Positions 1 to 26,156 of a DNA stretch of 64,000 bases are shown piece by piece. The notes beneath the pieces were generated by a model. It saw nothing but the letters and a program-made list of their open reading frames with translations, made no database searches and was not told where the DNA came from. This DNA comes from Candidatus Krumholzibacteriia bacterium (GTDB taxonomy: Bacteria; Krumholzibacteriota; Krumholzibacteriia; G020349025): NCBI GenBank assembly GCA_035649275.1, contig DASRJW010000024.1, positions 3,759 to 67,758 on the forward strand, given 5' to 3'. Position 1 is the first letter of the stretch. Every line of letters starts with the position of its first letter. The position numbers and the translations under genes are program-made.

Positions 1-1697
1 AGTCCCACTTCCGAACCGCTGGCGAGGAGCAGTAGCTCCGGGGGGCCGCCGGTGGCATCCGTGAGGACATAGCCGCCGCGCTCCACGCCGCCCTCGCCGG
101 CCGCCGCGGGCAGGGAGGCGAGCTTCTGCCGGGTGAGCACGAGAGCCACCGGGCCGCCGCGACGGCGGATGGCGAAGCTCCACGCGGCTGCCGTTTCCGC
201 CGCGTCGGCCGGCCGCAACACCACCAGGTTCGGGATGCAGCGCAGCGCGGTCAGCGTCTCCACGGGCTGGTGCGTCGGGCCGTCTTCACCGAGACCGATC
301 GAATCGTGGGTGAAGACATAGAGCACGTGCAGTCCCATGAGCGCCGCCAGGCGGATGGAAGGGCGCATGTAATCGGAGAAGATGAGGAAGGTGCCGCCAT
401 AGGGGATCACCCCACCGAAGAGAGCCATGCCGTTCAAGACCGCACCCATGCCGTGCTCGCGCACCCCGAAGCGCAGGTTGCGCTCCGCGGGCGCGCTGCG
501 CGAGAAGTTCCCCGAGAGACGGAGCAGCGTGTTGTTCGACGGCGCCAGATCGGCGGAACCGCCGACGAGCTCGGGCAGACGCGGCGCCAGGGCATTCAGC
601 ACCTTGCCCGAAGCCTCGCGCGTCGCCATGGCGGGCTCGGCAGGACCGAAGCGCGGCAGATCTTCCTCCCAGCCCGGGGGCAGCTGGGCGTGGCGGCGCC
701 GTTCGAGCTCCCGCGCCGCTTCGGGGTGGGCGCGGGCGTAGGCCTGCCAGCGTGCTTCCCATTCCGCCTGGAGCTTGGCGCCCCGTTCCCGGCAATGCAG
801 CCACTCAGCCCGGGCTTCCTCGGGGACGTAGAAGGCCTCCGGCCACGGCCAGCCGAGGGCGGCCTTGGTGAGACGCACCTCCTCGGCGCCGAGCGGGGCG
901 CCGTGGGCTTCCGCCGTGTCCTGTTTGTGCGGGCTGCCGTAGCCGATGTGGGTGCGGACGAGCACCAGGGACGGCCGGCTGGTTTCGGCGATGGCGGCAC
1001 GCGTGGCCCGCTCTAGAGCCTCGAGATCGTTGCCGTCCTCGAGGCGCTGCACCTGCCAGCCGTAGGCCTCGAAGCGTCGGGCGACGTCGTCGCTGTAGGC
1101 GAGGCTGGTGGAGCCGTCGATGGTGATGTGGTTGTCGTCGTAGAAGCCCACCAGCCGGCCGAGCCCGAGGTGTCCGGCGAGGGAAGCGGCCTCGTGCGAG
1201 ATGCCTTCCATGAGATCGCCATCGCTGGCGATGAAGAAGATGCGCTGGTCGCAGACCGTGTGTCCGGGCCGGTCGAAGAGCGCCGCCAGGTGCGTGGAAG
1301 CGAGCGCCATGCCGACGGCGTTGCCCAGTCCCTGACCCAGCGGGCCCGTCGTCGTCTCCACACCGGGGGTGAGGCCGTGTTCTGGATGTCCCGGCGTCCG
1401 GCTCTCCCACTGGCGGAACTGGCGCAGGTCGTCGAGGGAAAGGTCGTAGCCCGACAGGTGCAACAACCCATAGAGAAGCATCGAAGCGTGCCCGCAGGAG
1501 AGGACGAAACGATCTCGCCCGGGCCACGCCGGGTCCGCCGGATTGTGGCGCAGGTGGCGCGACCACAGCAGATAGGCAAGGGGGGCCAAGCCCATGGGGG
1601 TGCCGGGATGGCCTGATTTCGCTTGCTCCACCGCGTCCATGGCGAGCACGCGCAGGCTGTTGATGCAGAGCGCATCGAGAGCAGGGGGTGCGGTCAT
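1..1697 (-). CDS. tkt: Transketolase, C-terminally truncated by the window edge (N-terminus [45 protein letters not shown]...)
   Basis: Manual translation of the minus strand from the ATG at 1697..1695 gives the canonical transketolase N-terminus ([19 protein letters not shown] motifs). It is an uninterrupted frame to position 1 and is absent from the ORF track because it has no stop inside the window. Confidence 0.88.
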
Positions 1698-2716
1698 GGG
1701 GTGGAAGATAGCCCAGGGCGGCGGGCCAGGGCCAGCCCGAAGAGGTGCTCCGGGTCGGTGTACCACTGCATCAGTTCGAAACCAGTCTCAAGCAACAGCT
1801 CCCGCGCCATGTCGGGGTCGTACTTGACGCTGATCTCGGTGCGGATGAACTCCTCGCGCGCCAGAGCCAGGTCGAGTCGCGCCGCCCCGAGGCGCACCTT
1901 CTGCGCCGAGGTGGCCACCAGGCGCATCTCGATCCAGTGGTGCGCGGGATCGTAGAACGCCAGGTGGCGATAGCACTCCGGGCGGAAGTCGCCCTGGGCC
2001 ACGCGGTTCACCACCTGCAGGATGTTGCGGTTGAACGCCGCCGTGATCCCGCTCGCATCGTTGTACGCCGCTTCCAGCCTGCGTGTGTCTTTGATCAAGT
2101 CGACGCCGAGGAGGAAGGCCTCACCCGGGTGGAGCGCGCGTGCCAGGCTGGCGACGAAATCCCGCGCCGCCCGGGGCTCGAGGTTACCGATGGTGCCGCC
2201 GAGGAAGATGACAAGGCGCCGTCCTCCCACCGGCAGGCGGTGGTCGAGGCGGAGGAAGTCGCCGATGACCCCGTGGACGCGGAGACCGGGATAGCTGGCG
2301 ACGAGAGATTCTGCCGCCTGCCGGACGACCTGGCCGTTGACGTCGAAGGGGACGTAGAGATCGCAGCCCTGGTGACGCCGCATGGCTTCGAGGAGAAGGC
2401 GCGTCTTCGCAGAACTGCCCGAGCCCAGCTCCACGAGCACCGAGCCACCGCTCTGCGCGCACACATCGGCGGCGATTTCCGCCAGCAGAGCTCGCTCTGT
2501 GCGTGTCTGGTAATACTCCGGCAGTGCGGTGATCTGCTCGAAGAGCTCGGCGCCGCGGTCGTCGTAGAAGAATCGCGGTGCGATCTCGCGCGGTGTGCGC
2601 AGCAGACCATCGCGGATTCCCTGCACGAGCTGCGACGGGTCTTCGTCGTCGCCCAGGTCGTCGATGACGATCGAGCTCGTGGTCACGCCGCACCTCCGGT
2701 AGGGAAGAGGCAGCAT
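1694..2716 (-). CDS. egtD: L-histidine N-alpha-methyltransferase EgtD (ergothioneine biosynthesis)
   Basis: Matches EgtD along its length ([64 protein letters not shown]). The ATG at 2716 gives MLPLPYRR... about 46 aa before the FYD motif. The stop overlaps the tkt start (ATGA). Confidence 0.85.
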
Positions 2717-2858
2717 ACCAGGGGCGGCGGAGAGACCAGCGGCCGGATGCACGGGATCGCGCCCACGAGGTTCCCGGAAGCCGGCGTGCGGACACTCCAC
2801 ATCGCGCGCAGCCCCGCGCGGAAGCAGGCGCAGCCCGCTTCCCGTCCGTCCCGGAGCT

Positions 2859-2874
2859 TGTGAAAAAAATCACG
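2859..2874. promoter_or_regulatory. CRP/FNR-family-type palindrome TGTGA-aaaaaa-TCACg in the egtD/actA divergent intergenic region
   Basis: Read directly: TGTGA (2859-2863), 6-nt A spacer, TCACG (2870-2874), which is 9 of 10 matches to TGTGA-N6-TCACA. It lies 31 bp upstream of the -10 element of the putative act promoter. Confidence 0.4.
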
Positions 2875-2881
2875 AAGTCCC

Positions 2882-2910
2882 TTGCGGTCTACCCACCCCT
2901 CGGCTATGGT
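2882..2910 (+). promoter_or_regulatory. Sigma70-like promoter TTGCGG-N17-TATGGT upstream of actA
   Basis: -35 TTGCGG (2882-2887), 17-nt spacer, -10 TATGGT (2905-2910), about 36 nt upstream of the actA ATG at 2946. Confidence 0.4.
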
Positions 2911-2945
2911 GAGCCGCGGTTTTCAACGCCAAGGCGCGCGGAAGC

Positions 2946-3596
2946 ATGTCCCAGCTCTTCCACCACAGCACCAACACGCTCGCACGGGTCTCCATTTTCG
3001 GCGCTGTCTTCCTCGTCGCCGGGTTCTTCGGGGTGGTGACGTTGCTCGACCGCTCGACCTATTTCACCCGCCAGACCGAGGTGCTGCGCCAGCCCGTCCC
3101 CTTCAGTCACGATCACCATGTTGGCGCCATCGGCATCGATTGCCGTTATTGCCATACGTCGGTGGAGACCGCCGCCTTCGCCGGCGTACCCCCCACAGCG
3201 ACGTGCATGAACTGCCATTCCCAGATCTGGGCGGACAGCCCGATGCTGCAGCCCGTGCGCGACAGCTTCCGCACCGGCGAGCCGTTGCGCTGGGCCCGGG
3301 TGAACGACTTGCCTGACTTCGTCTACTTCGACCACAGCATCCACATCGCCAAGGGGATCGGCTGCGCCGAGTGCCACGGCCGCATGGATCGCATGCCGCT
3401 CACCCACGCCGCCAGCCCGCTGCAGATGCGCTGGTGTCTCGACTGCCACCGGCATCCTGGCGACCGCGTTCGCCCGCGGGCCGAGGTCTTCAACACCAAG
3501 TGGGAGGCCCCGCCGGGGGCGGCGGCGCTGCGCGCCGATCTGGCCAAGCGATATCAGGTGACCAGTATGACGGATTGCTCCACATGTCATCGCTAG
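2946..3596 (+). CDS. actA: Alternative Complex III subunit ActA, pentaheme cytochrome c
   Basis: Five CxxCH motifs (CRYCH, CMNCH, CAECH, CLDCH, CSTCH), an N-terminal membrane anchor, and first position in an act operon. Confidence 0.85.
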   Translation: MSQLFHHSTNTLARVSIFGAVFLVAGFFGVVTLLDRSTYFTRQTEVLRQPVPFSHDHHVGAIGIDCRYCHTSVETAAFAGVPPTATCMNCHSQIWADSPMLQPVRDSFRTGEPLRWARVNDLPDFVYFDHSIHIAKGIGCAECHGRMDRMPLTHAASPLQMRWCLDCHRHPGDRVRPRAEVFNTKWEAPPGAAALRADLAKRYQVTSMTDCSTCHR

Positions 3597-3606
3597 GGGT
3601 TGCCGC

Positions 3607-6600
3607 GTGAGCGCTGGAGAGACGACGAACATCCTGCGCCACTGGCGCAGTCTCGAAGAGCGGGAGGCCGGCGCCGCCGTCCCGAGCCAACGGCCCGAGT
3701 TCGCGCCGGGGGACGAACTCTTGCCCGACAGTCTCGACCGACGGCGTTTCCTGCAACTCATGGGCGCCTCCTTCGCTCTGGCGGGACTGGGGGCGTGCAC
3801 CCGCCAGCCGGTCGAGTCCATCGTCCCCTACGCGCGTCCGCCCGAGGAGGTCATCCCCGGGAAGCCCCTCTACTTCGCTACCGCTCTCACCCTGGGCGGT
3901 TACGCAACCGGTGTCCTGGTGGAAAGCCACATGGGACGGCCGACCAAGGTCGAGGGCAACCCGGAGCATCCGGCGAGCCTGGGGGCGACGGACCGCTTCT
4001 GCCAGGCGACGCTGCTCGACCTCTACGACCCGGATCGCTCCCGCGCCGCGTTGCACCTGCAACGCATTCGCAGCTGGGAAGCGTGGGTGCAAACTCTGGA
4101 ACCGGCGCTCGAGGCGCAAGTGGCGCTGCAAGGCGCCGGCTTGCGCATCCTGAGCGGCAGCAGCAGCTCGCCGACGCTGGCGGCGCAGATGCAACGCCTC
4201 AAGGCGCGTTTCCCCCAGGCGCGCTGGCACCGCTACGAGCCGGTATCGCGCGACGGCCTGCGCAGCGCCACCCTCGCTGGCTTCGGCAAGTACGTCGAGG
4301 TGCGCTACGACTTCTCCCAAGCCGATGTCGTCGTCGCCCTCGACTCGGACTTCCTGGTGAGCGGCCCGGGCTGCGTGCGCGCCGCCCACGACTTCATGAG
4401 CCGCCGGCGCGTGCGCGACGGCCAGTACGGCATGAACCGCCTCTACGCCGTGGAGAGCACCCCGAGCGCGACGGGAGCCGTCGCCGATCACCGCTTGTCG
4501 CTGGCGCCGGATCTCCTGCTCGGCTTCGCCTTCGGTCTGGGCTTCGAGTGCGGCGTCATCGGCACCGGTCAGGTCGGCCCCTTCGCTTCCGGCGACCTGC
4601 ACCACTGGTTGAACCGGGTCGGCGTGGACCTGCGCGAGCACGCCGGGCGCAGCATCGTGATCGCCGGCGACGAGACCTCGGCGGAGCTGCAGACGCTGGC
4701 GCTCGCCATGAACTACTACCTGGGCAACCTTGGCCGGACGGTGCTTGTGAGCGAGCCGGTCGAGGTGGAGCCGGTGAGCCACGTGGGTTCGCTCCGCGAT
4801 CTGGTGCAAGACATGCGTGCCGGACGCGTGGAGATCCTGCTCATCCTGGGCGGCAACCCGGTGTACGACGCCCCGGCGGACTTCGCCTTCGCCGCCGCGA
4901 TGGAGAAGGTGCCCTTGCGGGCGCACCTGTCCCTGAACGAGGACGAGACCTCGGAGCTGTGTCACTGGCATCTGCCCATGGCCCATGAGCTCGAAACCTG
5001 GGGCGACGCCCGTGCCTTCGATGGCACGGTGACGGTGCAGCAGCCGCTCATCGACCCACTGTACGGCGGCAAATCCGTGCACGAGCTCCTCGCCGTCGTC
5101 ACCGGCGAGAGCGAGCGCAAGGGGATCGACATCGTGCGCCGCACCTGGAAAGAGCGCCTCGGGGCCGTGGACTTCGAACCGGCCTGGAGGCGGATCCTGC
5201 ACGATGGCATCGTCCCCGGCTCGGCATGGCCACCACAGACTTACGTTTTCCAAAGCGATTGGGTGACGCAGTTCTGTCTCGCTCTGGTGCGTGAACTCAT
5301 CCCGCGGTTGGAGCGCAAGGACGCCGGCATCGATCTGGTCTTCCGCGCCGATCCGTCGTTGCACGACGGGCGCTTCGCCAACAACGGCTGGCTGCAGGAG
5401 CTGCCGAAGCCCTGGACACGGCTCACCTGGGACAATGCGGCCATCCTGGGACCCAAGATGGCGGCCGATCTGAGCCTGAAGCCGGAAGACGTGGTGGAGC
5501 TCGAGTTGCGCGACACGATCGTACGCGCCCCGGTCTGGGTGCTGCCCGGGCAGCCGGACGGCGTGGTCACGGTGCACCTGGGTTACGGTCGGCGCCGCGT
5601 GGGCCGGGTGGGCAAAGGCACCGGCTTCGACGCCTACCCGCTGCGCACGAGTGCCGGGCTCGATCGCGCCGGCGGCCTCCGGCTGCGCCGCACCGGCGAG
5701 CGCTGGGAGCTCGCCTCGACGCAGGTGCAGCGCACCATGGAGGGACGGAACCTGGCCCGGCAGGGAACGCTGCTGGAGTTCCGCTCCCACCCGGAGTTCG
5801 CCCGGGAAGCGGCGCACGGGGCGCCGCCGACGGAGTCGCTCTACCCGGGCTACGCCTACACCGGCCACGCCTGGGGCATGGTGGTGGACCTGGGGGCGTG
5901 CATCGGCTGCAACGCCTGCGTCATGGCGTGCAACGCCGAGAACAACATCCCCGTGGTCGGCAAGGCACAGGTGCATAACGGGCGCGAGATGCACTGGATC
6001 CGCATCGACCGCTACTTCGAGGGCGACCCGGAGAACCCCCAGGTGGTGCAGCAACCGGTCCTGTGCATGCATTGCGAGAACGCCCCTTGCGAGCCCGTCT
6101 GCCCGGTGGGCGCGACGATGCACGGCAAGGAAGGCCTGAACGAGATGGTCTACAACCGCTGCGTCGGCACGCGGTACTGCGCCAACAACTGCCCGTACAA
6201 GGTGCGGCGCTTCAACTTCTACCAGTACAACGACCGGGACACCGAAGTCCTGAAGATGCTCCGCAACCCGGACGTCACCGTGCGCACCCGCGGGGTGATG
6301 GAGAAGTGCACCTATTGCGTCCAGCGCATCAACCAGGCGCGGATCCAGGCGAAGAAGGAAGAGCGCTCCCTCAAGGACGGCGAGATCATCACCGCCTGCC
6401 AACAGGTGTGCCCGACGGACGCTCTGATCTTCGGTGACATCAACGACGCTGGCTCCAAGGTGGCGAAGCTGCGGCAGCAGCCGCTGCACTACGGCATCCT
6501 CGAGGAGCTGAACACGCGACCAAGAACCACCTACTTGGCCCGGGTCACGAACCCGAACCCGGAGAGCGGCGCGCCCCCCGAGCCGCGACACGGAGGACCG

Positions 6601-6612
6601 CGTGGCCACTGA
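3607..6612 (+). CDS. actB: Alternative Complex III subunit ActB (fused molybdopterin-oxidoreductase-like B1 plus 4Fe-4S ferredoxin-like B2), with a Tat signal
   Basis: Tat motif RRRFLQLMGASFALAGLGAC. C-terminal FeS cysteine clusters (CIGCNACVMAC, CMHCENAPCEPVCP, CVGTRYCANNCPYKVRRFN, CTYCVQRINQ). 1001 aa. Confidence 0.85.
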   Translation: MSAGETTNILRHWRSLEEREAGAAVPSQRPEFAPGDELLPDSLDRRRFLQLMGASFALAGLGACTRQPVESIVPYARPPEEVIPGKPLYFATALTLGGYATGVLVESHMGRPTKVEGNPEHPASLGATDRFCQATLLDLYDPDRSRAALHLQRIRSWEAWVQTLEPALEAQVALQGAGLRILSGSSSSPTLAAQMQRLKARFPQARWHRYEPVSRDGLRSATLAGFGKYVEVRYDFSQADVVVALDSDFLVSGPGCVRAAHDFMSRRRVRDGQYGMNRLYAVESTPSATGAVADHRLSLAPDLLLGFAFGLGFECGVIGTGQVGPFASGDLHHWLNRVGVDLREHAGRSIVIAGDETSAELQTLALAMNYYLGNLGRTVLVSEPVEVEPVSHVGSLRDLVQDMRAGRVEILLILGGNPVYDAPADFAFAAAMEKVPLRAHLSLNEDETSELCHWHLPMAHELETWGDARAFDGTVTVQQPLIDPLYGGKSVHELLAVVTGESERKGIDIVRRTWKERLGAVDFEPAWRRILHDGIVPGSAWPPQTYVFQSDWVTQFCLALVRELIPRLERKDAGIDLVFRADPSLHDGRFANNGWLQELPKPWTRLTWDNAAILGPKMAADLSLKPEDVVELELRDTIVRAPVWVLPGQPDGVVTVHLGYGRRRVGRVGKGTGFDAYPLRTSAGLDRAGGLRLRRTGERWELASTQVQRTMEGRNLARQGTLLEFRSHPEFAREAAHGAPPTESLYPGYAYTGHAWGMVVDLGACIGCNACVMACNAENNIPVVGKAQVHNGREMHWIRIDRYFEGDPENPQVVQQPVLCMHCENAPCEPVCPVGATMHGKEGLNEMVYNRCVGTRYCANNCPYKVRRFNFYQYNDRDTEVLKMLRNPDVTVRTRGVMEKCTYCVQRINQARIQAKKEERSLKDGEIITACQQVCPTDALIFGDINDAGSKVAKLRQQPLHYGILEELNTRPRTTYLARVTNPNPESGAPPEPRHGGPRGH

Positions 6613-7978
6613 ACCCCTGTCGTCGCGGTCCATGGCGCCGACGGTCATCGCTCCGGGCCACACCGCTGCCACGGTGACCGACAAGATCGCCGCCGTGGTC
6701 CTGCAGCGGACGCCGCTCTGGTTCTATCCGGCGTTCGGAGCGGCCTTCATGCTGCTCATGACCTTGCTCTACGCCATCACCTACCTCTTCGCCAAGGGCG
6801 TCGGCATCTGGGGCGTCAACAACCCGGTGGGCTGGGGCTTCGCCATCATCAACTTCGTCTGGTGGATCGGGATCGGTCACGCCGGCACGCTGATCTCGGC
6901 GATCCTCCTCCTCATGCGCCAGAAGTGGCGCACTTCGATCAATCGCTTCGCCGAGGCCATGACCCTCTTCGCCGTGGCTTGCGCCGGCTTGTTCCCCATC
7001 CTGCACCTGGGGCGCCCTTGGCTCGCCTACTGGCTCTTCCCCTACCCGAACACCATGTGGGTGTGGCCGCAGTTCCGCAGCCCGCTGATCTGGGACGTCT
7101 TCGCCATCTCCACCTACATGCTGGTGTCGCTCATGTTCTGGTACGTCGGGCTGATTCCGGATGTGGCGACGCTGCGCGATCGCACGAAAAACAAGATCGG
7201 CCAGATCGTCTACGGCATGATGGCCATGGGCTGGCGCGGCTCGGCGAAGCACTGGCACCACCACGACACCGCTTGCATCCTGCTGGCGGCGCTGGCCACG
7301 CCGCTGGTGGTGTCGGTGCACTCGGTGGTGAGCTTCGACTTCGCCGCCGGCATCATTCCCGGCTGGCACACCACGCTCTTCCCGCCCTACTTCGTGGCCG
7401 GCGCCATCTTCGCCGGCTTCGCCATGGTGATCACGCTCTGCATTCCGCTGCGCGCCGCTTTCGGCCTGCACGACTTCATCACCGAGTGGCACGTGCGCAA
7501 CATGGCCAAGGTCATGCTGGCCACGGGCCTCATCGTCAACTACGGCTACGGCATCGAGCTCTTCATCGCCTGGTATAGCGGCAGCCCCTACGAGACCTTC
7601 ATGCTCAGCAACAGGATCGGCGGGCCGTACCGCTTCATCTGGTACGCCCTCATCCTCTGCAACGTGGTGGCGACGCAGTTCCTCTGGTCGGCGAAGGTGC
7701 GTTCCTCCGCCGTCGCCCTCTGGGTGGTAGCCATGTTCATCAACGTGGGGATGTGGCTCGAACGTTTCGTCATCGTCGTCACCAGCTTGCACCGGGACTT
7801 CATGCCCTCCGCCTGGGGCATGTATTACCCCACCAAGTTCGACTGGATGACCTTCCTGGGCAGCATCGGTCTGTTCCTCTCCCTCATGTTCCTCTTCGTC
7901 CGGCTCCTGCCGATGATCTCGATCTTCGAGATCCGCGGCATCCTGCCCAAGACACGGGCAGGGGAAAGGAGCGCCTGA
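6602..7978 (+). CDS. actC: Alternative Complex III subunit ActC (NrfD/PsrC-like polytopic membrane quinol-binding subunit)
   Basis: Highly hydrophobic multi-TM protein (WWIGIGHAGTLISAILLLM, LFPYPNTMWVWPQF) in the expected operon position. Confidence 0.8.
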   Translation: MATEPLSSRSMAPTVIAPGHTAATVTDKIAAVVLQRTPLWFYPAFGAAFMLLMTLLYAITYLFAKGVGIWGVNNPVGWGFAIINFVWWIGIGHAGTLISAILLLMRQKWRTSINRFAEAMTLFAVACAGLFPILHLGRPWLAYWLFPYPNTMWVWPQFRSPLIWDVFAISTYMLVSLMFWYVGLIPDVATLRDRTKNKIGQIVYGMMAMGWRGSAKHWHHHDTACILLAALATPLVVSVHSVVSFDFAAGIIPGWHTTLFPPYFVAGAIFAGFAMVITLCIPLRAAFGLHDFITEWHVRNMAKVMLATGLIVNYGYGIELFIAWYSGSPYETFMLSNRIGGPYRFIWYALILCNVVATQFLWSAKVRSSAVALWVVAMFINVGMWLERFVIVVTSLHRDFMPSAWGMYYPTKFDWMTFLGSIGLFLSLMFLFVRLLPMISIFEIRGILPKTRAGERSA

Positions 7979-8523
7979 TGCAAGTGCACCGCCAGCCCCT
8001 GCATGGCGTCATGGCCGAGTTCGATCACTCGGACAGGTTGATCGCCGCGGTGAAGGCGGTGCGGTCCCAGGGCTACACACAGCTGGACGCCTACACCCCC
8101 TATCCCATCGAGGCTCTGCACCATGCCCTCGGCCACCACCATTCGCCGTTGCCGCGCATGGTGCTGGCCGGCGGCATCACCGGCGCTCTCGGTGGCTTCC
8201 TACTGCAGACCTGGACCAGCACCGTGGCCCTGCCGCTCAACGTCGGCGGCAAGCCCTTCTTCAGCTGGCCGGCCTTCATCCCCGTCACCTTCGAGTGCAC
8301 GATTCTCTTGGCGTCGTTAACCGCCGTCTTGGGGATGCTGGCGCTCTCCGGTTTGCCCCGGCCGCACCACCCGGTGTTCAACGTCGAGCGCTTCGCCATG
8401 GCGAGCCGGGACCGCTATTTCCTCTGCATCGAAGCTGGCGATCCTCTCTTCGACGTCGACAAGACGTGCCAGTTCCTCTGGACCCTGGAGCCGACGCATG
8501 TGGCCGAAGTCGCCGAAACCTGA
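7978..8523 (+). CDS. actD: Alternative Complex III subunit ActD
   Basis: The ATG at 7978 overlaps the actC stop (ATGA). About 180-aa protein with two TM helices and operon context. The track ORF 7753..8523 carries a spurious N-terminal extension. Confidence 0.7.
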   Translation: MQVHRQPLHGVMAEFDHSDRLIAAVKAVRSQGYTQLDAYTPYPIEALHHALGHHHSPLPRMVLAGGITGALGGFLLQTWTSTVALPLNVGGKPFFSWPAFIPVTFECTILLASLTAVLGMLALSGLPRPHHPVFNVERFAMASRDRYFLCIEAGDPLFDVDKTCQFLWTLEPTHVAEVAET

Positions 8524-9142
8524 AAGCCGCGCCGCCGCCCTGGTCGTGGCGCTGCTGGCGCTTCCGGGCTGCATCCGGCTCGACATGTACAACCAGCCGC
8601 GCTACGAGCCGCTGGAGGCGAGCCGGTTCTATGCCGACGGGCGCTCCGCCCGGCAGCTTCCTGCCGGCACGGTGGCCCGGGGCACGCTGCTCGAGGATCG
8701 GGCCTACGCCACCGGCACGGTGAACGACTCGACCTTCGCCACCGAGCTGCCGTTCGCGCTGACGCCGGAGCTCCTGCAGCGCGGCCGCGAGCGCTACGGC
8801 ATCTTCTGCTCCGTCTGTCACGACGGCACCGGGTCCGGGCGCGGCATGGTGGTGCGGCGCGGCTACAAGCAGCCGCCGTCCTTCCACATCGAGCGGCTGC
8901 AGCAACAGCCGGCGGGCTATTTCTTCGACGTCATCAGCCGCGGTTTCTCCACCATGCCCAGCTACGCCGCTTCCATCCCCATCGCCGATCGCTGGGCCAT
9001 CGTGGCTTACCTGCGAGCGCTGCAGCTGTCGCAGCAGGTCGCGGTGCGCAACTTGCCGGAGCCGTGGCGGGGCGAGATCGAAGCCGCGGCGAATCAGGCA
9101 GCCGCAGGGAAGAAGGAGCCAGCAGGCCATGAGCATAGGTGA
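8498..9142 (+). CDS. actE: Alternative Complex III subunit ActE, monoheme cytochrome c lipoprotein
   Basis: Lipobox LLALPGC, a single CSVCH heme motif, and operon position. Confidence 0.8.
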   Translation: MWPKSPKPESRAAALVVALLALPGCIRLDMYNQPRYEPLEASRFYADGRSARQLPAGTVARGTLLEDRAYATGTVNDSTFATELPFALTPELLQRGRERYGIFCSVCHDGTGSGRGMVVRRGYKQPPSFHIERLQQQPAGYFFDVISRGFSTMPSYAASIPIADRWAIVAYLRALQLSQQVAVRNLPEPWRGEIEAAANQAAAGKKEPAGHEHR

Positions 9143-10334
9143 CGCGCCTTCGCTGGCGGTGCTGCGCGCCGCGGCCGTGCCGGCCGGCTGGACGCAAGAC
9201 CTGCGCAAGCGGGCCCTGTGGTTCGCCATCCCGGCCGCGGTAGCCTCGGTGGCCGGCGCCATCGTCGCACCCCAGGCCTTCTACCGCGCCTACCTCACCG
9301 GCTTCGTCTTCTGGCTCGGCGTGCCCCTGGGCTGCCTGGGGCTCCTGCTCCTCACCCACATGACCGGCGGCAGCTGGGCTCTGATCATGCGGCGGCTCCT
9401 GGAGGCGGCGACGCGCACCCTGCCCCTTCTGGTGCTCCTCTTCGTCCCCGTGCTGCTCGGCCTGCGAACGCTGTACTCCTGGACCGACGCCGAGAAGGTG
9501 GCGGCGAGCGCCATCCTGCAGCACAAAGCGCCGTACCTGAACTTGCCGTTCTTTCTGCTCCGCACCGCCCTCTACTTCCTGATCTGGGGGCTCTTCGCCT
9601 TCGTGCTCAACCGCTGGTCGCTGGAGCAGGATCGGACCGGGGCCTCGACGCTGCCACGGCGACTGCAGGGTGCCGGCGGTGTCGGCTTGCTCGTCTTCAT
9701 GCTGGCCGGGAGCTTTGCCAGCTTCGACTGGCTCATGTCCCTCGACCCGCTGTGGTTCTCCAGCATCTACGGCATGCACTTCGTCGTCGGCCAAGCGGCC
9801 TCCGGCCTCTGCTTCGCCATCCTGGTGGCTCGCTCGCTCGGGCGCTCGCAGCCCTTGGACCGGGTCTACGCCCCGCGGCACCTGGACGACTACGGCAAGC
9901 TCTTGCTCGCCTTCATCCTCCTCTGGGGCTACATGACCTACTCGCAGTACCTGATCATCTGGTCCGGCAACCTCCCGGAGGAAATCACCTTCTATGTGCG
10001 CCGGCACGCCGGGGGCTACATGGTGCTGAGCTTCGTCATCGCCGCCCTGCACTTCGCCCTCCCTTTCTTCCTGCTCTTGTCCAAGAGCATCCGCAGCAAT
10101 CCCCAGCGCCTGGTGTGGGCGGCGGTTCCCGTCTTCGTCGGCCACTGGCTCGATCTGGTCTGGCAGGTGGCGCCATCGCTGGATCCGGAGGGACCGGCGC
10201 TGCACTGGCTCGATCCGGTGGTGACGCTCGCCATCGGCAGCGTCTGGCTCGTCGCCTTCGCCTGGCAGCTGCCGCGACGCGCACTTCTGCCGCAGAAGGA
10301 CGCACACCTGGAGGAGGCCTTGGCGGATGAGTGA
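9129..10334 (+). CDS. actF: Alternative Complex III subunit ActF (second NrfD-like membrane subunit)
   Basis: Polytopic membrane protein paralogous in character to ActC, in operon position. Confidence 0.75.
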   Translation: MSIGDAPSLAVLRAAAVPAGWTQDLRKRALWFAIPAAVASVAGAIVAPQAFYRAYLTGFVFWLGVPLGCLGLLLLTHMTGGSWALIMRRLLEAATRTLPLLVLLFVPVLLGLRTLYSWTDAEKVAASAILQHKAPYLNLPFFLLRTALYFLIWGLFAFVLNRWSLEQDRTGASTLPRRLQGAGGVGLLVFMLAGSFASFDWLMSLDPLWFSSIYGMHFVVGQAASGLCFAILVARSLGRSQPLDRVYAPRHLDDYGKLLLAFILLWGYMTYSQYLIIWSGNLPEEITFYVRRHAGGYMVLSFVIAALHFALPFFLLLSKSIRSNPQRLVWAAVPVFVGHWLDLVWQVAPSLDPEGPALHWLDPVVTLAIGSVWLVAFAWQLPRRALLPQKDAHLEEALADE

Positions 10335-10806
10335 CCAGCATGCCAAGGGTCCCGGCACCGGGCACGACCACGAGCCGGAAACGTTCGATCGCGAGATCAG
10401 CGTCCGGCCTCTCGTCGCCTTCGCCGTCGGTCTCGTGGTGGTCATCATCGTTTCCGGTGTGGCCATGTGGGGACTCTCGGTGTTGCTCAAGGCGCGCGAG
10501 GAAGCCCAGGACCGGCCGCTCTCGCCGGTGGTGCAGCGCGAGGGCGCGCCCCCGGTGCCGGAGCCGCATCTGCAGACGACGCCGGAGCTGGATCTCAAGG
10601 CGATGCGGGCCCACGAGGATTCGCTCCTGCACTCCTACGCCTGGGTGGACCGGAATGCCGGCGTCGCCCGCATCCCGTTGGAGCGCGCCATGGAGCTTTT
10701 GGTGCAGCAGGGCTTGCCGACGCGAGCCGAGCCTCTGCCCTGGACGCGGCCCGGCACCTGGCGTGATCAGAGCCTGCAACGGCTGGCGCGGGAGGGTGGG
10801 CCGTGA
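10327..10806 (+). CDS. Small single-TM membrane protein in the act operon (possible ActG)
   Basis: 159 aa with one TM helix (LVAFAVGLVVVIIVSGVAMWGLSVLL). It overlaps both actF and sco by 4-8 nt. The name is inferred only from position. Confidence 0.5.
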   Translation: MSDQHAKGPGTGHDHEPETFDREISVRPLVAFAVGLVVVIIVSGVAMWGLSVLLKAREEAQDRPLSPVVQREGAPPVPEPHLQTTPELDLKAMRAHEDSLLHSYAWVDRNAGVARIPLERAMELLVQQGLPTRAEPLPWTRPGTWRDQSLQRLAREGGP

Positions 10807-11696
10807 AGCGCCTCGTTCTCGCTTGCCTCCTCCTTGGTTGGGCCGTCGCGGCGGCGGGCCAGCCCGGCGTCCCGGCGTCCCGGCAACCGGGCGCGGCGGC
10901 ACCGAGCCCGAGCGCCGGCACCTCGGCGTCGAGCCCGAGCGCTGCCGCCGCCAACCAGAGCGGCTTGCCCCGGGCGCTGCGCGAGGTGGGCTTCGACCAG
11001 AAGATAGGGACGATGCTGCCGCTGCAGTTGCGTTTCCGCGATGAAACCGGCGCCACGGTGGAGCTGGGCAGCTTCTTCGGCCAGCGCCCGGTGCTCCTCT
11101 CTCTCGTCTACTACGAGTGCCCCATGCTCTGCTCCATGGCGCTCAACGGCCTGGTCTCGAGCTTGCGGGCCTTGAACATGGAACCCGGGCGTGACTTCGA
11201 GATCGTCACCGTGTCCTTCGATTCCACCGAAGGTCCCGCGCTGGCGGCGGCGAAGAAGGCGAAGTACTTGGAGGAATACCACCGTCCCGGAGCGGCGGCG
11301 TCCTGGCATTTCCTCACCGGCGAGGGGCCGGCGATCCGGGGACTCACCGAGAGCGTGGGCTTCCGCTACACCTGGGACGAGCCGACCAAGCAGTTCGCCC
11401 ATGCGAGCGGCCTCATCGTCACCACGCCGGCGGGTGAGCTGGCGCGCTATTTCTTCGGCATCGAGTACGCACCACGCGACCTGCGGCTGGGTCTGGTGGA
11501 GGCGTCGAAGGGCAAGCTGGGCAACGTCGTCGATCAGGCGCTGCTCTACTGCTTCCGCTATGACCCGGAGTCGGGGACGTACGCCGCGGCGGCGCTCAAC
11601 CTGGTGCGCGCCGGCGGCGTGGTCACGGTGATCTTGATCGCGGTGTTCATCTTGTGGATGCGACGGCAGGAGCGCCGGCGCCTGCTCCCGAGCTGA
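10803..11696 (+). CDS. sco: SCO1/SenC family copper chaperone (thioredoxin-like)
   Basis: CPMLC (CxxxC) copper-binding motif in a thioredoxin-fold context (LVYYECPMLCSMALNGL), a signal/TM N-terminus and a C-terminal TM. It sits between the act and cox genes. Confidence 0.8.
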   Translation: MKRLVLACLLLGWAVAAAGQPGVPASRQPGAAAPSPSAGTSASSPSAAAANQSGLPRALREVGFDQKIGTMLPLQLRFRDETGATVELGSFFGQRPVLLSLVYYECPMLCSMALNGLVSSLRALNMEPGRDFEIVTVSFDSTEGPALAAAKKAKYLEEYHRPGAAASWHFLTGEGPAIRGLTESVGFRYTWDEPTKQFAHASGLIVTTPAGELARYFFGIEYAPRDLRLGLVEASKGKLGNVVDQALLYCFRYDPESGTYAAAALNLVRAGGVVTVILIAVFILWMRRQERRRLLPS

Positions 11697-11716
11697 CGGA
11701 GGACCCGAGCGACACC

Positions 11717-12649
11717 ATGTCGAAAGCACCCTTCATGCCCCCGCAGGGGTCCAGCTTTGCCGGGCAGGTCGATCTCCTCTACCTCTTCCTGGTGGCGATC
11801 AGCCTGTTCTTCTCGCTCCTCATCGCCGGCCTCATCGTCTACCTCGCGGTGCGCTACAAGCGCCGGTCGCCGCGGGACATCGGCGTCCCGATTCATGGCT
11901 CGGGGGTGCTGGAGATCGCCTGGTCGGTGATCCCGCTCGTCATCATGCTGGGTTCCTTCGTCTGGGGCACGATGTTGTTCTTCCACCTCTCCCGGCCGCC
12001 GGCGGACGCGGTGGAGTACTTCGCCGTCGGCAAGCAGTGGATGTGGAAGTTCCAGCATCCCGACGGCACCCGGGAGATCAACACCTTGCACCTGCCCGTG
12101 GGGCAGCCGGTGAAGGTCACATTGACCTCGGAGGACGTGATCCACGACCTCTTCGTCCCGGCCTTCCGGGTCAAGATGGACGTCCTCCCGGCGCGCTACA
12201 GCACCATCTGGTTCCAGCCCGTTCGCGTCGGTACCTACCATCTCTTCTGCGCCGAATACTGCGGCGCCGAGCATTCGCGCATGGGCGGCTGGATCGTGGT
12301 GCAGGAGCCCGAGGACTACGAGCGCTGGCTGGCGGGGGAGCGCGGCCAGGAGAACCGGCTCGCCAGCCCGGAGGACCTCTTCAAGCGCTTCGCCTGCGAG
12401 TCGTGCCACCGCACCGACTCGGTGGCGCGTGCGCCCCAGCTGGCGGGTCTGTTCGGCAAGCAAGTGCGCTTCAAGGACGGCAGTGCCATCGTGGCCGACG
12501 ACAACTACATCCTGGAGTCGATCCTCAAGCCGAACGAGAAGATCGTCGCCGGGTATCAACCGATCATGCCCACGTTCCAGGGCCAGATGAGCCAGGAGGA
12601 AGCGCTCGCTCTCGTGCGCTACGTCCGTGGGCTCGAAGCGGGGAAGTGA
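11717..12649 (+). CDS. coxB: Cytochrome c oxidase subunit II, caa3-type with a fused C-terminal cytochrome c domain
   Basis: CuA motif [15 protein letters not shown] plus the heme c motif CESCH. The start is taken at MSKAPFM; the track ORF starts earlier, at 11654. Confidence 0.85.
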
Positions 12650-14270
12650 GATGCCCTCCACCGAGCGCGCCGTCCTCGAGACCGAGGACTACATCAATGC
12701 CGATTACAACATCAAATCGTGGCTGCTGACCACGGATCACAAGCGCATCGCCGTGCTCTATCTGATCTCGGTGACGCTGTTCTTCCTCATCGGCGGCCTC
12801 TTCGCCGTCCTCATCCGTCTGGAGCTGCTGACGCCGCAGGGCGATCTGATGCAGTCGGACACCTACAACCGCGTCTTCACCATGCACGGCGTGACGATGG
12901 TGTTCTTCTTCCTCATCCCCTCCATCCCCACGGTGCTAGGCAACTTCCTCGTGCCCATGATGGTGGGGGCCCGGGATCTGGCCTTCCCCAAAGTGAACCT
13001 GGCTAGCTGGTACGTGTTCAACCTGGCCGGGGTCTTCACCCTCTACGCTATGTTCGCCGGCGGCGTGGACACGGGCTGGACCTTCTACACGCCCTACAGC
13101 ACCACCTACTCCAACACCCACGTGGTGGCCACCGGGCTCGGCGTCTTCATCGCCGGTTTCTCCTCCATCATGACCGGCCTCAACTTCATCGTCACCATCC
13201 ACCGCATGCGGGCGCCGGGGCTCACCTGGTTCCGCCTGCCCCTCTTCCTCTGGGCGCATTACGCCACCAGCCTAGTGATGATCCTGGGTACACCGGTGAT
13301 CGCGATCACCACCCTGCTGCTGGCAGTGGAGCGGGGTTTCAAGATCGGCATCTTCGACCCCAATCTGGGCGGCGACCCGGTGCTCTTCCAGCACCTGTTC
13401 TGGTTCTACTCGCACCCGGCGGTGTACATCATGGTGCTCCCGGCCATGGGTGTGATCAGCGAGCTCATCGCCGCTTTCGCGCGCAAGCCCGTCTTCGGCT
13501 ACAAGATCGTCGCCGCGTCGAGCATGTCCATCGCCATCCTCGGCTTCCTGGTCTGGGGCCACCACATGTTCGTGAGCGGCCAGTCGGTGTACGCCGCCAC
13601 GGTGTTCTCCGTCCTCAGCATGCTGGTGGCGGTGCCGTCGGCGGTGAAGGTGTTCAACTGGACAGCGACGCTGTACAAGGGCTCGGTCTCTTTCGAAACC
13701 CCCATGCTCTACGCCCTGGGTTTCATCGGCCTCTTCACCGTGGGCGGGTTGACCGGGGTGATGCTGGCGACGCTCGGGCTCGACGTGCACGTGCACGACA
13801 CCTACTTCGTGGTGGCGCATTTCCACTACATCATGGTGGGCGGCACGATCATGGCGTACCTGGGGGGGCTGCACTTCTGGTGGCCGAAGATGTCCGGACG
13901 CCTGTATCCGCAGTTCTGGTCCAGGCTCTCGGCGCTCATCATCTTCGTCGGCTTCAACCTCACCTTCTTCCCCCAATTCCTCCTCGGCTACATGGGGATG
14001 CCACGGCGCTACCACGTCTATCCCGAGGAGTTTCAAGTGCTGCACGTGCTCTCCAGCGCCGGCGCCTCCATCCTGGGGGTGGGCTACATCCTGCCGGTGT
14101 TCTATCTCACCTGGTCGATGCGCTACGGGCCGCGGGCCTCGGCCAATCCCTGGGGGGCCACGGGGCTCGAGTGGCAAACGTCGTCGCCGCCGCCGACGCA
14201 CAACTTCCTGGAGACCCCGGTGGTGACCACGGACGCGTACCACTACAGCGAAGAGGTGACCGTTGGCTAA
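12627..14270 (+). CDS. coxA: Cytochrome c oxidase subunit I
   Basis: Canonical heme-copper oxidase subunit I sequence ([24 protein letters not shown]; [17 protein letters not shown]). 547 aa. Confidence 0.92.
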
Positions 14271-14919
14271 CCCGCAACCCCTGCTGGCAACTCATTTCGA
14301 CACCCTGGATCAGCAGCGGGAATCCGCTTCGCTGGGGATGTGGGTGTTCCTGATCACCGAAGTCATGTTCTTCGGCGGCCTCTTCACCGCCTACATCGTC
14401 TATCGCTCGCGGCTGCACGGTCTCTTCGACTACGGCAGCCACGAGCTGAACGTCACGCTCGGCGCCATCAACACCATCGTGCTCATCTGCAGCAGCCTCA
14501 CCATGGCCATCGCCGTCCGCGCCTCACAGCTGGGCGATCGGCGCACCCTGGTGCGCTTCCTCGTCCTTACCATGCTCCTGGGGTTGACCTTCCTCGGGAT
14601 CAAGGCGGTGGAGTATCAGGAGAAGTTCGTGCACCACCTGGTGCCCGGGCCGCACTTCCAGTGGCACGGCCCGCAGCCCCGGCAGATCGAGATGTTCTTC
14701 TCCTTGTACTTCGCCATGACCGGACTGCACGCGCTGCACATGATCGTGGGGGTAGGGCTCATCCTCTGGCTGCTGCCGCGGTCGGCGAAGGGGTTCTACG
14801 GCCCGGACTACCACCACCCCATCGAGTGCTTCGGCCTCTACTGGCACTTCGTCGACATCGTCTGGATCTTCCTGTTCCCGCTGCTCTATCTGCTCGGGCG
14901 CAGTCACTTCGTGGGCTAA
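14263..14919 (+). CDS. coxC: Cytochrome c oxidase subunit III
   Basis: Subunit III-like polytopic protein ([27 protein letters not shown]). Confidence 0.85.

Positions 14920-18145: not shown

Positions 18146-18149
<4 letters not shown>
16407..18149 (-). CDS. Polytopic membrane protein, putative ArnT/PMT-type (GT39/GT83-like) glycosyltransferase
   Basis: More than 10 predicted TM helices. The GTG start overlaps the upstream cyclase stop (GTGA). The track ORF 16407..18809 is over-extended into the upstream gene in another frame. Confidence 0.4.
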
Positions 18150-22846
<4,697 letters not shown>

Positions 22847-22850
<4 letters not shown>

Positions 22851-23929
22851 GGGTCGCCGCCATCGCCGTATTGCTGCCAGTCGTAGTAATAGCGGTCGCG
22901 GTCCGGGTCCCAGTCATCCCAGGTGGCCACTTGCTGCAACCGGGGCAGGCGCTCTGGCGGGACGACGCCGGGGACGACGAAGGCTTTCTGCCGTCGCAGC
23001 GGATAGGGATTGCGCAGCTCCAGGCCGAGAACACCGAGGACCGCCCGCGCCACGTACCACATGGCTTGCGGGTCCCAGCCGTGGGCCACCTTGATCACGA
23101 TGCCGAGCCCGTGCGGGAACTCCTGGTGCGCGATGGAGAGACCGAGAAGCCCATCGGCACCTTCCTTGGCGATGACGTGTCCTTCGCCCGCTTTCAGGAT
23201 TGTGCTGTCGAGACGATTGAAGCCACCGATCAGGTCGGGATGGCGCACCATCGCTTCCCAGATCCAATCTTCCTCGTGCGTCGAAGCCAGGCCGGCGAAG
23301 AGAATGGCGAGCTCGCTCACGGTGTTGGAGACCGTGGGCAGGCCGCAGCCGTCACGGGCCACCCGGAGGGGCGTCCAGTCGCGGCCGAGGAAACGCCGGA
23401 GTGTCTGCACGTAGGCCTGGAAGAGTGGATGCTGCGGCAGGGTGTAGCCGGCGCGGTTCCAGCCCAAGAGCCGGCAGGCGCGCAGGATGGCGGCGTGCTC
23501 GCCGGAGCAGGTGTTGTACCAGCGGCGCGGCCGCCGCACCTGCCGGCCGAACTGCAACAGCGGCACGTCGAGGGGCGTCTGCATGAGGCCCCACTCGTCC
23601 TCCGGGAGGAGCGACTGTGCAGCGGCCACGTGCTCCGCCGTGCCGTTGTGGCTGCTCACCGCGATCGCCTTCTGCGTCCAGGTGGTGTCCGGCGCCAGCG
23701 CCGCTGCCAGCGCTTTCATGAGCAGCGGTTTCATCATGCTGCGGCCGTAGCAGAGCACGTTGCCGCCGAAGGAATGCACGATCCGCTTGCCGCTCGCCCA
23801 GGCCACGGCGCCATGGATGGTGGTCTCGCTCACCCCGTGGCGCCGGTAGTCGAGGAGCGGCTCCCACTCGACGTCGCGCCCCGTGGGGATCCCGGCATCG
23901 CGCTCGCCGAGAGGCGAGCGCGGGTACAT
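22847..23929 (-). CDS. L-asparaginase II family (PF06089-like) protein
   Basis: Family-like segments (RSMMKPLLMKAL, GFNRLDSTILKAGEGHVIAKEGADGLLG). Start chosen at MYPRSPLG; the track ORF extends to 24097. Confidence 0.55.
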
Positions 23930-24093
23930 GGCCTCCCCCGGCCGGCCGTGACCCGGGAGATGGAGCTGCAGCGAACGGGTCGAGGAATCGCCGTCGATTG
24001 CGGGGCGAGACCGTTTCGTCTTTGCCGCGGACCCACGGTGGGTTCTGCGCTTCCCCGCGGCGCCGCCGCGGGCGCGTCGCTTGCTTGCTGCCT

Positions 24094-25350
24094 TCAATGC
24101 CGTTCTCCCGCGGCTCTGCGGCTCATGGCGTCGCTCACGCGCGGCGCCACGCGTGTCATGAAAGCTTCCATGTTGGCGACGACGCGAGGGCTGTCATGGT
24201 TGAAGAAGTCGAACCACAGCATGAGACGATCCTCGGGGTGGAAGCGGGCGAGGATCTGCTCCACCACGTCGTCGGCATTACCCACCACGGCATTGTCCGC
24301 CGCTACCTCCACCTTCGTCGGATCGAGGGTGCCTTCGAGGGCGGTCCAGTAGGCGGCCAAGGCGGTGCGGGCCTCGGCTCGCGCGGCGGCACGGCGTTCC
24401 TCCGGCGACAGTTGCGGCTGTTCGTTCAAGAAAACCATGAGGGTCCTCGGCATGTACCCGCGCCGCCACGGCCCCCCGTCTGGATGATACGCCTGCCCCA
24501 ACCTCCGGTGGGTGTCCTCGATCACCTCAGGGCGGGTGATGGAGAGGTTGAACACCTGCACCGGCAGGATGCGGTTGACCTCCTCTTGCAGGCGCGGGTC
24601 GTGGGAGCCGATCACCGGAACGCAGAGCTCGCGCCGCCACTCCTGCGGCACGATCTTGAGCGGCTCGAAGACGAAGCGCCGCTGCAGCGGGAGCGATTCC
24701 TTCCGCCCTCCGCCGGGCGCGGCCAGCGACAGCACCTTTTCCCACTCCGCCTCGGAGCGAAAATCGGCGCGGGAGAGCGAGGGCTCGGGCAGGTCGCTGC
24801 TCGAGAGGATGTCCCCGCGCAAGAGGCGCAGGAAGATCGTCGCCGCTTCGGCGAAGATCTTGCCTTTCACCGCGGGCCAGGCTGCGGCCTCGATGGCGTC
24901 ACGCGGCAGGATGCCGTAGGCCCGGTTCATGAAGTCGAAGCGTCCGGCGGCGAAGCCCACGTGGATGCGGCGGCGCTCCGCCGGGTCCAGGCCGTGCAGG
25001 CTGCAGAAGGCGGCGATGCGCTCCGCCGCCGCCACCGGACCGCCGTTGCACAGGATGTTCATCACCGCGCTGCCGGCCTCGATGCGGCGGGTGCGCCGGA
25101 AGATCTGCTGGGCCAGCTGCAGGAAATCGACGTTGAGACCCACCTCGCCGCGCCAGTGCGGGATCACCGGTTCGCGGTGGCGTTTCTGCACTTCGCTGGA
25201 GAGATGCGACTCGGCGATCCAGGCGGTGCCGAAGCCGAGGGCGTCTGCCGCCTCTACCTGGGCGAAGAAATTGCGAAACATCTCCGCCTCGTTGGGGAGG
25301 ACGTCCTCGACCGGGGTCTGGCTGATGGAGAAGAAGATGTCGAAGTCCAT
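24094..25350 (-). CDS. Luciferase-like (flavin-dependent) monooxygenase
   Basis: LLM fold starting at MDFDIFFSISQ. The 689-aa track ORF 24094..26163 fuses this with an upstream out-of-context Arg-rich extension. Confidence 0.65.
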   Translation of the reverse strand: MDFDIFFSISQTPVEDVLPNEAEMFRNFFAQVEAADALGFGTAWIAESHLSSEVQKRHREPVIPHWRGEVGLNVDFLQLAQQIFRRTRRIEAGSAVMNILCNGGPVAAAERIAAFCSLHGLDPAERRRIHVGFAAGRFDFMNRAYGILPRDAIEAAAWPAVKGKIFAEAATIFLRLLRGDILSSSDLPEPSLSRADFRSEAEWEKVLSLAAPGGGRKESLPLQRRFVFEPLKIVPQEWRRELCVPVIGSHDPRLQEEVNRILPVQVFNLSITRPEVIEDTHRRLGQAYHPDGGPWRRGYMPRTLMVFLNEQPQLSPEERRAAARAEARTALAAYWTALEGTLDPTKVEVAADNAVVGNADDVVEQILARFHPEDRLMLWFDFFNHDSPRVVANMEAFMTRVAPRVSDAMSRRAAGERH

Positions 25351-25355
25351 CGGCT

Positions 25356-26156
25356 CTAGATGCTCCGCAGTCGCCCGCCGTCCACGGGCAGGCTCGTACC
25401 GCGTACGAAGGATGCCGCCGGGGAGACGAGGAAGGCAATGGCGGCGGCGATCTCCTCGGGGCGACCCAGACGTTTCTCCGGCGCCATCTCGCGCCACTCC
25501 GCTTCGATCGCCTCGATACTGCGGCCGGTGCGTGCGGCGGTGCTGCGTGCCAGCTCCGCCAGGCGCTCCGTGGCCGTGTATCCCGGCAGCACATTGTTGA
25601 TGGTGACGCCCGGCGGCAGCTCCCGAGAGAGCGACTTGGCCCAGGAAGCCATGGCGGCGCGGATGGTGTTGCTGACGCCGAGGAGATCGATGGGCTCGCG
25701 CACCGAGGTGGAGAGGACGTTGACGATGCGCCCGTAGCCTGCTTCCCGCATCCCTGGCAGCAGGAGCTGCACCAGTCGATGGGCCGAGAGCACGTGGCGC
25801 CGGAAGGCGGCGAGGAGAGCCGCCGTGTCCGCTTCGACGAGCTTGCCCGCCGGCGGTCCGCCCGTGTTGTGCACGAGGATGTGGACGGGAGCGGCTTGCT
25901 GCAGCCAATCGCCGACGACGCGTTCGAAGCCCTCGATGTTTTCCAGATCGGCCACCAGCGAGGTCGCGCTGGCGGCTCCGGCGGCGCGTAGCTCGGGAAG
26001 CAGGGCTTCGAGCTTGGCTCCGTCTCGCGCCAACACGGTAATGCCGGCGCCCAGGCCGGCACATGCCAGTGCCGTGGCCCGGCCGATGCCGGCACTGGCA
26101 CCGCAGACGAGCGCCGAGCGCCCGGCGAGGCTGAAGGCGGGTGCGAGAGAAGGCAT
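25356..26156 (-). CDS. SDR family oxidoreductase
   Basis: Rossmann GxxxGxG (VCGASAGIGRA) and a YxxxK-type motif (NVLPGYTATERL). 266 aa. Confidence 0.8.
   Translation of the reverse strand: MPSLAPAFSLAGRSALVCGASAGIGRATALACAGLGAGITVLARDGAKLEALLPELRAAGAASATSLVADLENIEGFERVVGDWLQQAAPVHILVHNTGGPPAGKLVEADTAALLAAFRRHVLSAHRLVQLLLPGMREAGYGRIVNVLSTSVREPIDLLGVSNTIRAAMASWAKSLSRELPPGVTINNVLPGYTATERLAELARSTAARTGRSIEAIEAEWREMAPEKRLGRPEEIAAAIAFLVSPAASFVRGTSLPVDGGRLRSI

Follow-up and report, generated by a model that had tools for sequence, protein, structure and literature searches.

A conserved Rex-operator-like palindrome at the promoter of the ACIII-caa3 operon in Candidatus Krumholzibacteria and its counterparts upstream of other actA genes

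Results

The ACIII-caa3 locus and its promoter

The window, i.e. the whole stretch of 64,000 nucleotides (64 kb) that was analysed, belongs to a Candidatus Krumholzibacteria MAG, which stems from soil or rhizosphere metagenomes. It contains the ACIII-caa3 operon, which extends from actA to coxC, and the divergently oriented gene egtD (Table 1). A transketolase gene was found with Pfam beside egtD, also on the minus strand, and leftward of egtD the contig contained only this gene and a gene for a C25 peptidase.

Two further regions of the window attracted attention. The region from 18146 to 27382 contains genes that resemble a cluster for kynurenine/tryptophan degradation, i.e. genes for a cyclase/kynurenine-formamidase-like protein (18146-18805), a LigB-type dioxygenase fused to a RidA domain (18790-21792), an aldehyde dehydrogenase (21378-22913) and a tryptophan 2,3-dioxygenase (26135-27382), and also for an MFS transporter. 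On the minus strand (30322-33117) a large Kelch-repeat protein is encoded, which has a sub-threshold match to a type IX secretion C-terminal sorting domain. Such a sorting domain is compatible with the affiliation of the Krumholzibacteria with the FCB group.

Table 1. Features of the actA upstream region and of the adjacent genes in the window.
Feature	Position	Strand	Basis or remark
Very probable palindromic operator, 18 bp, Rex-operator-like, TTGTGAAAAAAATCACGA (TTGTGAA-AAAA-ATCACGA), includes the 16-mer at 2859-2874	2858-2875	.	Consensus match and orthologous boxes
Linker AGTCCC between operator and -35	2876-2881	+	AAGTCC(C) kept in the window, L087, L088, L175, L023, L074 and L096
-35 hexamer TTGCGG	2882-2887	+	CTTGCG invariant in five lineages (ActA identity 63-100%); consensus matched at 3 of 6 positions
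-10 hexamer TATGGT	2905-2910	+	TA.G.T invariant
Predicted transcription start (+/-2 nt)	2917	+	Inferred from the position of the -10; operator centre would then be at about -50.5
Short 5' leader; GCGG (2916-2919) and AGG (2932-2934) conserved	2911-2945	+	Invariant alignment columns
Putatively regulated operon actA to coxC, about 12 kb, genes abutting or overlapping	2946-14919	+	Pfam and ORF coordinates
actA	2946-3596	+	Pfam/ORF
actB	3607-6612	+	Pfam/ORF
actC	6602-7978	+	Pfam/ORF
actD	end 8523	+	Pfam/ORF
actE	8498-9142	+	Pfam/ORF
actF-like	9129-10334	+	Pfam/ORF
Gene without assigned name between actF-like and SCO1	10327-10806	+	ORF
SCO1	10803-11696	+	Pfam/ORF
coxB	end 12649	+	Pfam/ORF
coxA	12627-14270	+	Pfam/ORF
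coxC	14260-14919	+	Pfam/ORF
egtD, histidine N-alpha-methyltransferase (Methyltransf_33), divergent from actA	1694-2686	-	Pfam and exact protein match
Candidate egtD -10 TATGCT, some 25 nt before the start of egtD	2712-2717	-	Conserved at the equivalent place in L087, L089 and L088

A sequence-only reading of the locus had proposed that actA is preceded by the sigma70-like promoter TTGCGG-N17-TATGGT. The two hexamers match the consensus at 7 of 12 positions, and a sigma-70 promoter scan was negative. Both hexamers and their 17-nt spacing were conserved in relatives, and the spacer (2888-2904) retained its length while its sequence varied. Conservation in relatives whose ActA is 63-83% identical was confined to the palindrome (in the following termed box), the -35 and the -10, and therefore the proposed promoter was supported. 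The start codon of actA, ATG at 2946, follows 36 nt after the end of the TATGGT. The AGG at 2932-2934 is probably the ribosome-binding site.

The palindrome and its similarity to the Rex operator

The palindrome was verified by direct reading of the sequence. TGTGAAAAAAATCACG is located at 2859-2874 and consists of TGTGA (2859-2863), AAAAAA (2864-2869) and TCACG (2870-2874). It had been described as TGTGA-N6-TCACg, with 9 of 10 matches to the CRP-family consensus, 31 bp upstream of the -10. Both values agreed with the sequence, in which the distance from the end of the motif to the start of the -10 is 31 positions. The search for further TGTGA-N6-TCACA sites, which had been suggested as a check, was performed in the 64-kb window and did not bring additional sites to light. 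With at most one mismatch a single match was found, compared to 0.94 expected, and 52 of 100 shuffles contained a match as well. As a CRP 10-mer the palindrome is at chance level in the window.

The 18-bp inverted repeat at 2858-2875 agrees at 12 of 14 positions with the Rex operator consensus TTGTGAANNNNTTCACAA (TTGTGAA-N4-TTCACAA), in the form in which it is quoted in PMC5355995 and PMC5317091. This pattern, which is literature-defined but was picked after the site had been seen, yielded one match in the window at two or fewer mismatches, compared to 0.01 expected. The 18-mer was the sole match even when up to three mismatches were allowed. For Rex its right arm, ATCACGA, is less typical than the left one and carries a CRP-like inner A; the right arm TTCACGA is present in a footprinted Streptomyces Rex site (PMC5355995).

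Conservation of the box upstream of actA

At least 159 distinct actA upstream regions from genomes and metagenomes were compared, with ActA identities of 53-83%. The labelled loci were mostly from Acidobacteriota; close ActA relatives were under-sampled, and closer ones were added singly. Six loci of the same species (L001-L006) had 100% identical intergenic regions and were thus uninformative. The compared relatives were L087-L092 (83% ActA identity), L088 (74%), L175 (69%) and L098 (63%). The upstream DNA of diverged relatives could not be aligned, with the exception of three blocks, which represent a phylogenetic footprint: CTTGTGA-N6-TCAC(G/A)AAGTCC, the -35 with the sequence TTGCG(G/C), and the -10 with the sequence TA(T/A)G(G/T)T. 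The orthologous boxes of these relatives had zero to two mismatches to the Rex consensus as quoted, and the L088 box, TTGTGAAGAGTTTCACAA, matched this quoted form perfectly.

The 18-mer was present with at most two mismatches in 19 of the 159 upstream regions, among the matches listed, while about 0.1 would be expected; it was found in 2 of 3180 shuffles and in none of the coding controls. Among the matches listed, this corresponds to an about 190-fold enrichment before actA. The neutral core GTGA-N6-TCAC occurred in 29 of the 159 regions, again among the matches listed, versus none of the controls and 14 of 3180 shuffles. In the 853 kb of loci listed, all but one of the 22 good matches lay within 320 nt upstream of actA. 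When the sequences were anchored at the box, pairwise identity was 0.85 at the 14 specified positions, compared to 0.27-0.31 in the flanks; the median ActA identity among box-bearing loci was 60%. GTGA and TCAC were invariant in 22 of 22 sites, and the central bases varied (e.g. GAGT in L088 and TTGA in L175). This conservation across lineages shows that the palindrome and the promoter hexamers are both under selection, and it is very probable that the palindrome serves the ACIII-caa3 promoter as a genuine and conserved operator.

The box was absent from about 80-88% of the actA loci, among the matches listed. One of the loci without a box is L174, with an ActA identity of 70%, and therefore ACIII operons do not universally have the box. 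In L174 actA follows a second, ACIII-like cluster, which lies directly upstream (2463-9765) and encodes a molybdopterin oxidoreductase, an NrfD/ActD fusion and cytochromes; the intergenic region is filled with hairpin-like repeats.

Five loci labelled Terriglobales or Acidobacteriaceae (L037, L054, L061, L078 and L161) contained a variant palindrome, (T)CGTGA(C/G)-N4-GTCACA(G). A perfect TATAAT precedes it by about 10 nt, and the intervening cacaagtttt is conserved. For this variant two readings are conceivable, a diverged operator located where the transcript begins and a hairpin in the 5' leader.

Half-site pattern of the box

CRP/FNR sites follow the pattern TGTGAT...ATCACA or TTGAT...ATCAA, with an inner T on the left and an inner A on the right. 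Sites of the type TGTGA-N6-TCACA are also used by Fnr of B. subtilis, ArcR, GlxR and the mycobacterial CRP. The core is common to the sites of CRP/FNR proteins and of Rex, and the 9 of 10 matches at 2859-2874 do not discriminate between them. Therefore, the flanking positions are of importance. In the sites selected by the core alone, GTGA was followed by A in 16 of 28 cases and by T in 2, TCAC was preceded by T in 17 of 27 cases and by A in 3, and the outer bases were mostly TT and AA. The extended consensus of 22 independent sites was TTGTGAA-N4-TTCACAA, with inner A/T and outer TT/AA; the position counts are partly biased by the Rex-consensus screen. The inner T/A preference of CRP/FNR proteins was not found across the sites, and only the right half of the window site fits to it. 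The sequence-only reading had assigned the site to the CRP/FNR family; the core on which this assignment was built is indeed common to both families, but the extended consensus is the Rex pattern.

Position of the box relative to promoters

In the window the box ends 6 nt before the -35, in L087, L175 and L098 the distance is 5 nt. Its centre in the window lineage is at -50.5 or -49.5 relative to the predicted transcription start, which fits neither to CRP/FNR class II sites (-41.5) nor to class I sites (-61.5/-71.5). In 14 of the 21 box-bearing loci the box lies within or just downstream of a predicted promoter. It fills the spacer of TTGACA-N17/18-CAnnAT promoters (9-11/12 matches) in nine loci, with the centre at about -18.5, and an independent promoter scanner confirmed such promoters with the box in the spacer for L083 and L081. 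In five further loci (L017, L023, L074, L096 and L132) the box centre is +8.5 to +12.5 past the predicted start of an upstream promoter. The overlap with, or the location behind, a promoter in most lineages indicates a repressor geometry. In contrast, the window lineage, in which the box abuts the -35, does not show this placement, which is typical of Rex sites, relative to the predicted start. The CRP/FNR reading was weakened by the position in the window and by the overlap with or location behind strong promoters in most other lineages.

Footprinted Rex sites at rex, nuoA1, atpI and cydA1 overlap or follow promoters, like the box in most lineages, and Rex footprints have lengths of 23-29 bp (PMC5355995). 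A footprint of this length on the window box would abut the -35.

Eight loci with the box in a TTGACA promoter (L133, L103, L122, L160, L081, L150, L027 and L083) have predicted leaders of 59-159 nt, which contain a conserved TAAGCT or TAGGCT nearer to actA. This motif may be part of a second, proximal promoter comparable to the TATGGT of the window. In L023 (2860-2990) TTGCAC-N17-TAGGAT is located upstream of the box and TTGAAC-N17-TATCGT downstream of it, so that this locus looks like an intermediate between the two promoter architectures.

The box and the divergent egtD gene

It had also been considered possible that the palindrome controls egtD. The TATGCT at 2712-2717 is likely to be the -10 element of egtD. 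The distance between the box and the -10 at the egtD side varies from 48 to about 140 nt (about 140 nt in the window, 48 nt in L087), whereas the box keeps a constant distance from the actA promoter. Among the box-bearing loci egtD was present only in Krumholzibacteria relatives, and it was absent from 15 of 21. In L175 genes for an OpuA-like ABC transporter (7508-9816) are inserted between egtD and actA as the divergent neighbour, and the box and the promoter stay with actA. Because of the variable spacing and the absence of egtD from most box-bearing loci, the idea that the box controls egtD was rejected. The box goes with actA and not with egtD, and egtD is probably free of box control.

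Search for the regulator gene

Searches for rex, using phmmer with six-frame ORFs and Pfam, yielded no such gene in the 64-kb window or in the about 170 actA loci listed. The phmmer query was B. subtilis Rex, which was validated against PDB 2VT2; the Rex domains are the winged-helix domain PF06971 and the Rossmann domain PF02629. A Rex profile search in a large protein database retrieved only Bacillus and Streptococcus clusters, a result that says nothing about Krumholzibacteria or Acidobacteriota. A search for a Crp/Fnr gene had been suggested in the sequence-only reading; in the 64-kb window it did not reveal any CRP/FNR gene (six-frame ORF search and Pfam). The sole CRP/FNR-family ORF near any actA listed is located at 424-1125 on the minus strand of L007, a locus of a Thermoanaerobaculia MAG, 1.9 kb upstream of actA (E about 1e-12 to CRP and FNR of E. 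coli). The palindrome is absent from this locus.

Discussion

Rex-type control as the most likely reading

Because the extended box and the consensus of its counterparts have the sequence of the Rex operator, Rex-type, NADH-responsive control of the ACIII-caa3 operon seems to be the most likely explanation, and we hold it with moderate confidence. The earlier suggestion that a redox-type regulator acts on this operon is plausible, and the palindrome on which it was based is a conserved, real cis-regulatory site. Rex as the binding protein is what we infer from the motif, its geometry and the nature of the target, and NADH would then be the signal.

The same 18-bp palindrome, TTGTGAA-N4-TTCACAA, characterizes the Rex regulons of Streptomyces coelicolor/avermitilis, Bacillus subtilis, Staphylococcus aureus, Thermus and Desulfovibrio, and the S. 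aureus consensus TTGTGAAWWWWTTCACAA has an A/T-rich centre, as has the box described here. A respiratory-chain operon as the target is a further similarity: According to Pfam the ACIII-caa3 operon belongs to energy/redox metabolism. Calditrichaeota and Krumholzibacteria are both members of the FCB group. Rex and a Rex box occur in Caldithrix (PMC5317091), cyd, nuo, atp and ndh, all of them respiratory operons, are among the classic targets of Rex (PMC5355995), and the Rex regulon of Desulfovibrio is predicted to include qrcABCD, which encodes a relative of ACIII (PMC4045070). The situation differs from the known Rex systems in three respects. In the window lineage the box is located upstream of the -35, from -59 to -42; a cognate rex gene is absent from the 64-kb window and the actA loci listed; and the target, ACIII-caa3, and the phyla, Krumholzibacteriota and Acidobacteriota, are ones for which no literature report was found.

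In the proposed mechanism, a dimeric DNA-binding regulator bound to 2858-2875 would control the single promoter TTGCGG-N17-TATGGT of the ACIII-caa3 operon of about 12 kb. A Rex dimer at about -50.5, abutting the -35, would repress by hindering contacts of sigma region 4 or of the alpha-CTD. A build-up of NADH would cause Rex to leave the operator, the operon would be expressed more strongly, and the added respiratory capacity would re-oxidise NADH. For the window lineage with its weak promoter, activation instead of repression is conceivable.

Other explanations for the palindrome

Alternatively, a CRP/FNR-family regulator that responds to cNMP, O2, NO or redox state, of the type of B. subtilis Fnr, HcpR or ArcR, could activate or dually regulate the ACIII-caa3 promoter. 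The sites of E. coli CRP and the predicted HcpR sites of Desulfovibrio (PMC545781) have the identical 5+5 core and half-site spacing, regulators of this family often govern respiration, and they repress or activate depending on their position (PMC545781). In the window and its relatives the promoter that follows the site is weak (7/12), as would be expected for activation, the right half ATCAC has the CRP-like inner A, and the L007 actA locus has its CRP/FNR-family neighbour. However, this neighbour is found at a locus without the box, and no such gene is present in the window. In addition, the box differs from CRP/FNR sites in its flanks, which follow the Rex pattern with inner A/T instead of T/A across lineages, in its centre at -50.5/-49.5 and not at -41.5 or -61.5, and in its overlap with or location behind strong consensus promoters at 14 of 21 sites. 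A CRP/FNR-family regulator is regarded as the second most likely explanation, with less weight than Rex. Quite unlikely, in our view, is that another or uncharacterised regulator family binds the palindrome, or that in the window lineage the alpha subunit of the RNA polymerase contacts the A-rich box (-59 to -42), which would in part function like an UP element. Such an explanation would accommodate the absence of a regulator gene tied to the site, the conserved AGTCCC linker, which is otherwise without explanation, and the A tracts in the boxes of the window (AAAAAAA) and of L087 (AACAAAA), which are at the position of an UP element. Yet GTGA and TCAC are invariant while the centre varies, which argues for sequence-specific binding of a dimer and not for an A tract, and the match to the well-defined Rex consensus, in its quoted form, is very good.

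At the level of the RNA, a hairpin in the 5' leader with an UGUGA/UCACA stem might act on mRNA stability or translation, and in the Terriglobia-type loci, L023, L074 and L096 the palindrome would indeed be transcribed, starting from the promoter upstream of it. In the window, however, it lies upstream of the sole conserved promoter, and in nine loci it is in the spacer between -35 and -10, which is not transcribed. Furthermore, the sequence itself is conserved and not merely the pairing, and an Rfam scan of 2600-3050 yielded no family matches. The hairpin was rejected due to the position of the palindrome, and it is hardly credible. A chance palindrome without function has next to no probability: in 64 kb one would expect about one such 10-mer if a single mismatch is allowed, but the conservation amid flanks that cannot be aligned, the about 190-fold enrichment and the exclusive tie to actA upstream regions speak against it. 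Even taken together, an RNA hairpin and chance are highly unlikely.

A precedent from Desulfovibrio

Confusion between the two operator types has occurred before. TTGTGA-N6-TCACAA sites upstream of sat and apsAB of Desulfovibrio were attributed to the CRP/FNR protein HcpR (Rodionov 2004, PMC545781), and in a later paper sat and apsAB appear as predicted Rex targets (PMC4045070). These "HcpR" sites have the palindrome TTGTGAnnnnnnTCACAA over the -10 of energy-metabolism operons and were first read as CRP/FNR sites. They serve as a warning precedent and are not a homologous system. This reassignment makes the CRP/FNR assignment in the sequence-only reading understandable, as a historically repeated one. 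The present case also serves as a practical warning that TGTGA-N6-TCACA alone cannot distinguish CRP/FNR sites from Rex sites.

Biological implications

No reports were found in the literature that link Rex or another regulator to ACIII operons in Acidobacteriota or Krumholzibacteriota, and the control of ACIII-caa3 in Acidobacteriota and in candidate phyla like Krumholzibacteriota appears to be unstudied so far. We regard the box as an operator of a known type, with a target that is new and in phyla that have been little studied; it represents a standard transcription factor site and no new mechanism. It is tempting to speculate that the regulator of the Rex box is a widespread, unrecognised switch of ACIII-caa3, the main aerobic respiratory chain, in Acidobacteriota and Krumholzibacteriota, and that in Krumholzibacteria the operator was shifted to a place at about -50 and before a weak promoter, where the protein perhaps acts as an activator or anti-activator and not simply as a repressor, but this is unlikely. 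If true, Rex would act in a non-canonical mode, or a CRP/FNR-type protein would have converged on the Rex box. The box motif can be used for the genome-wide reconstruction of regulons in uncultured lineages. The Acidobacteriota and other such phyla are among the most abundant bacteria in soil, and the conserved operator offers a handle on how they match respiration to the redox state.
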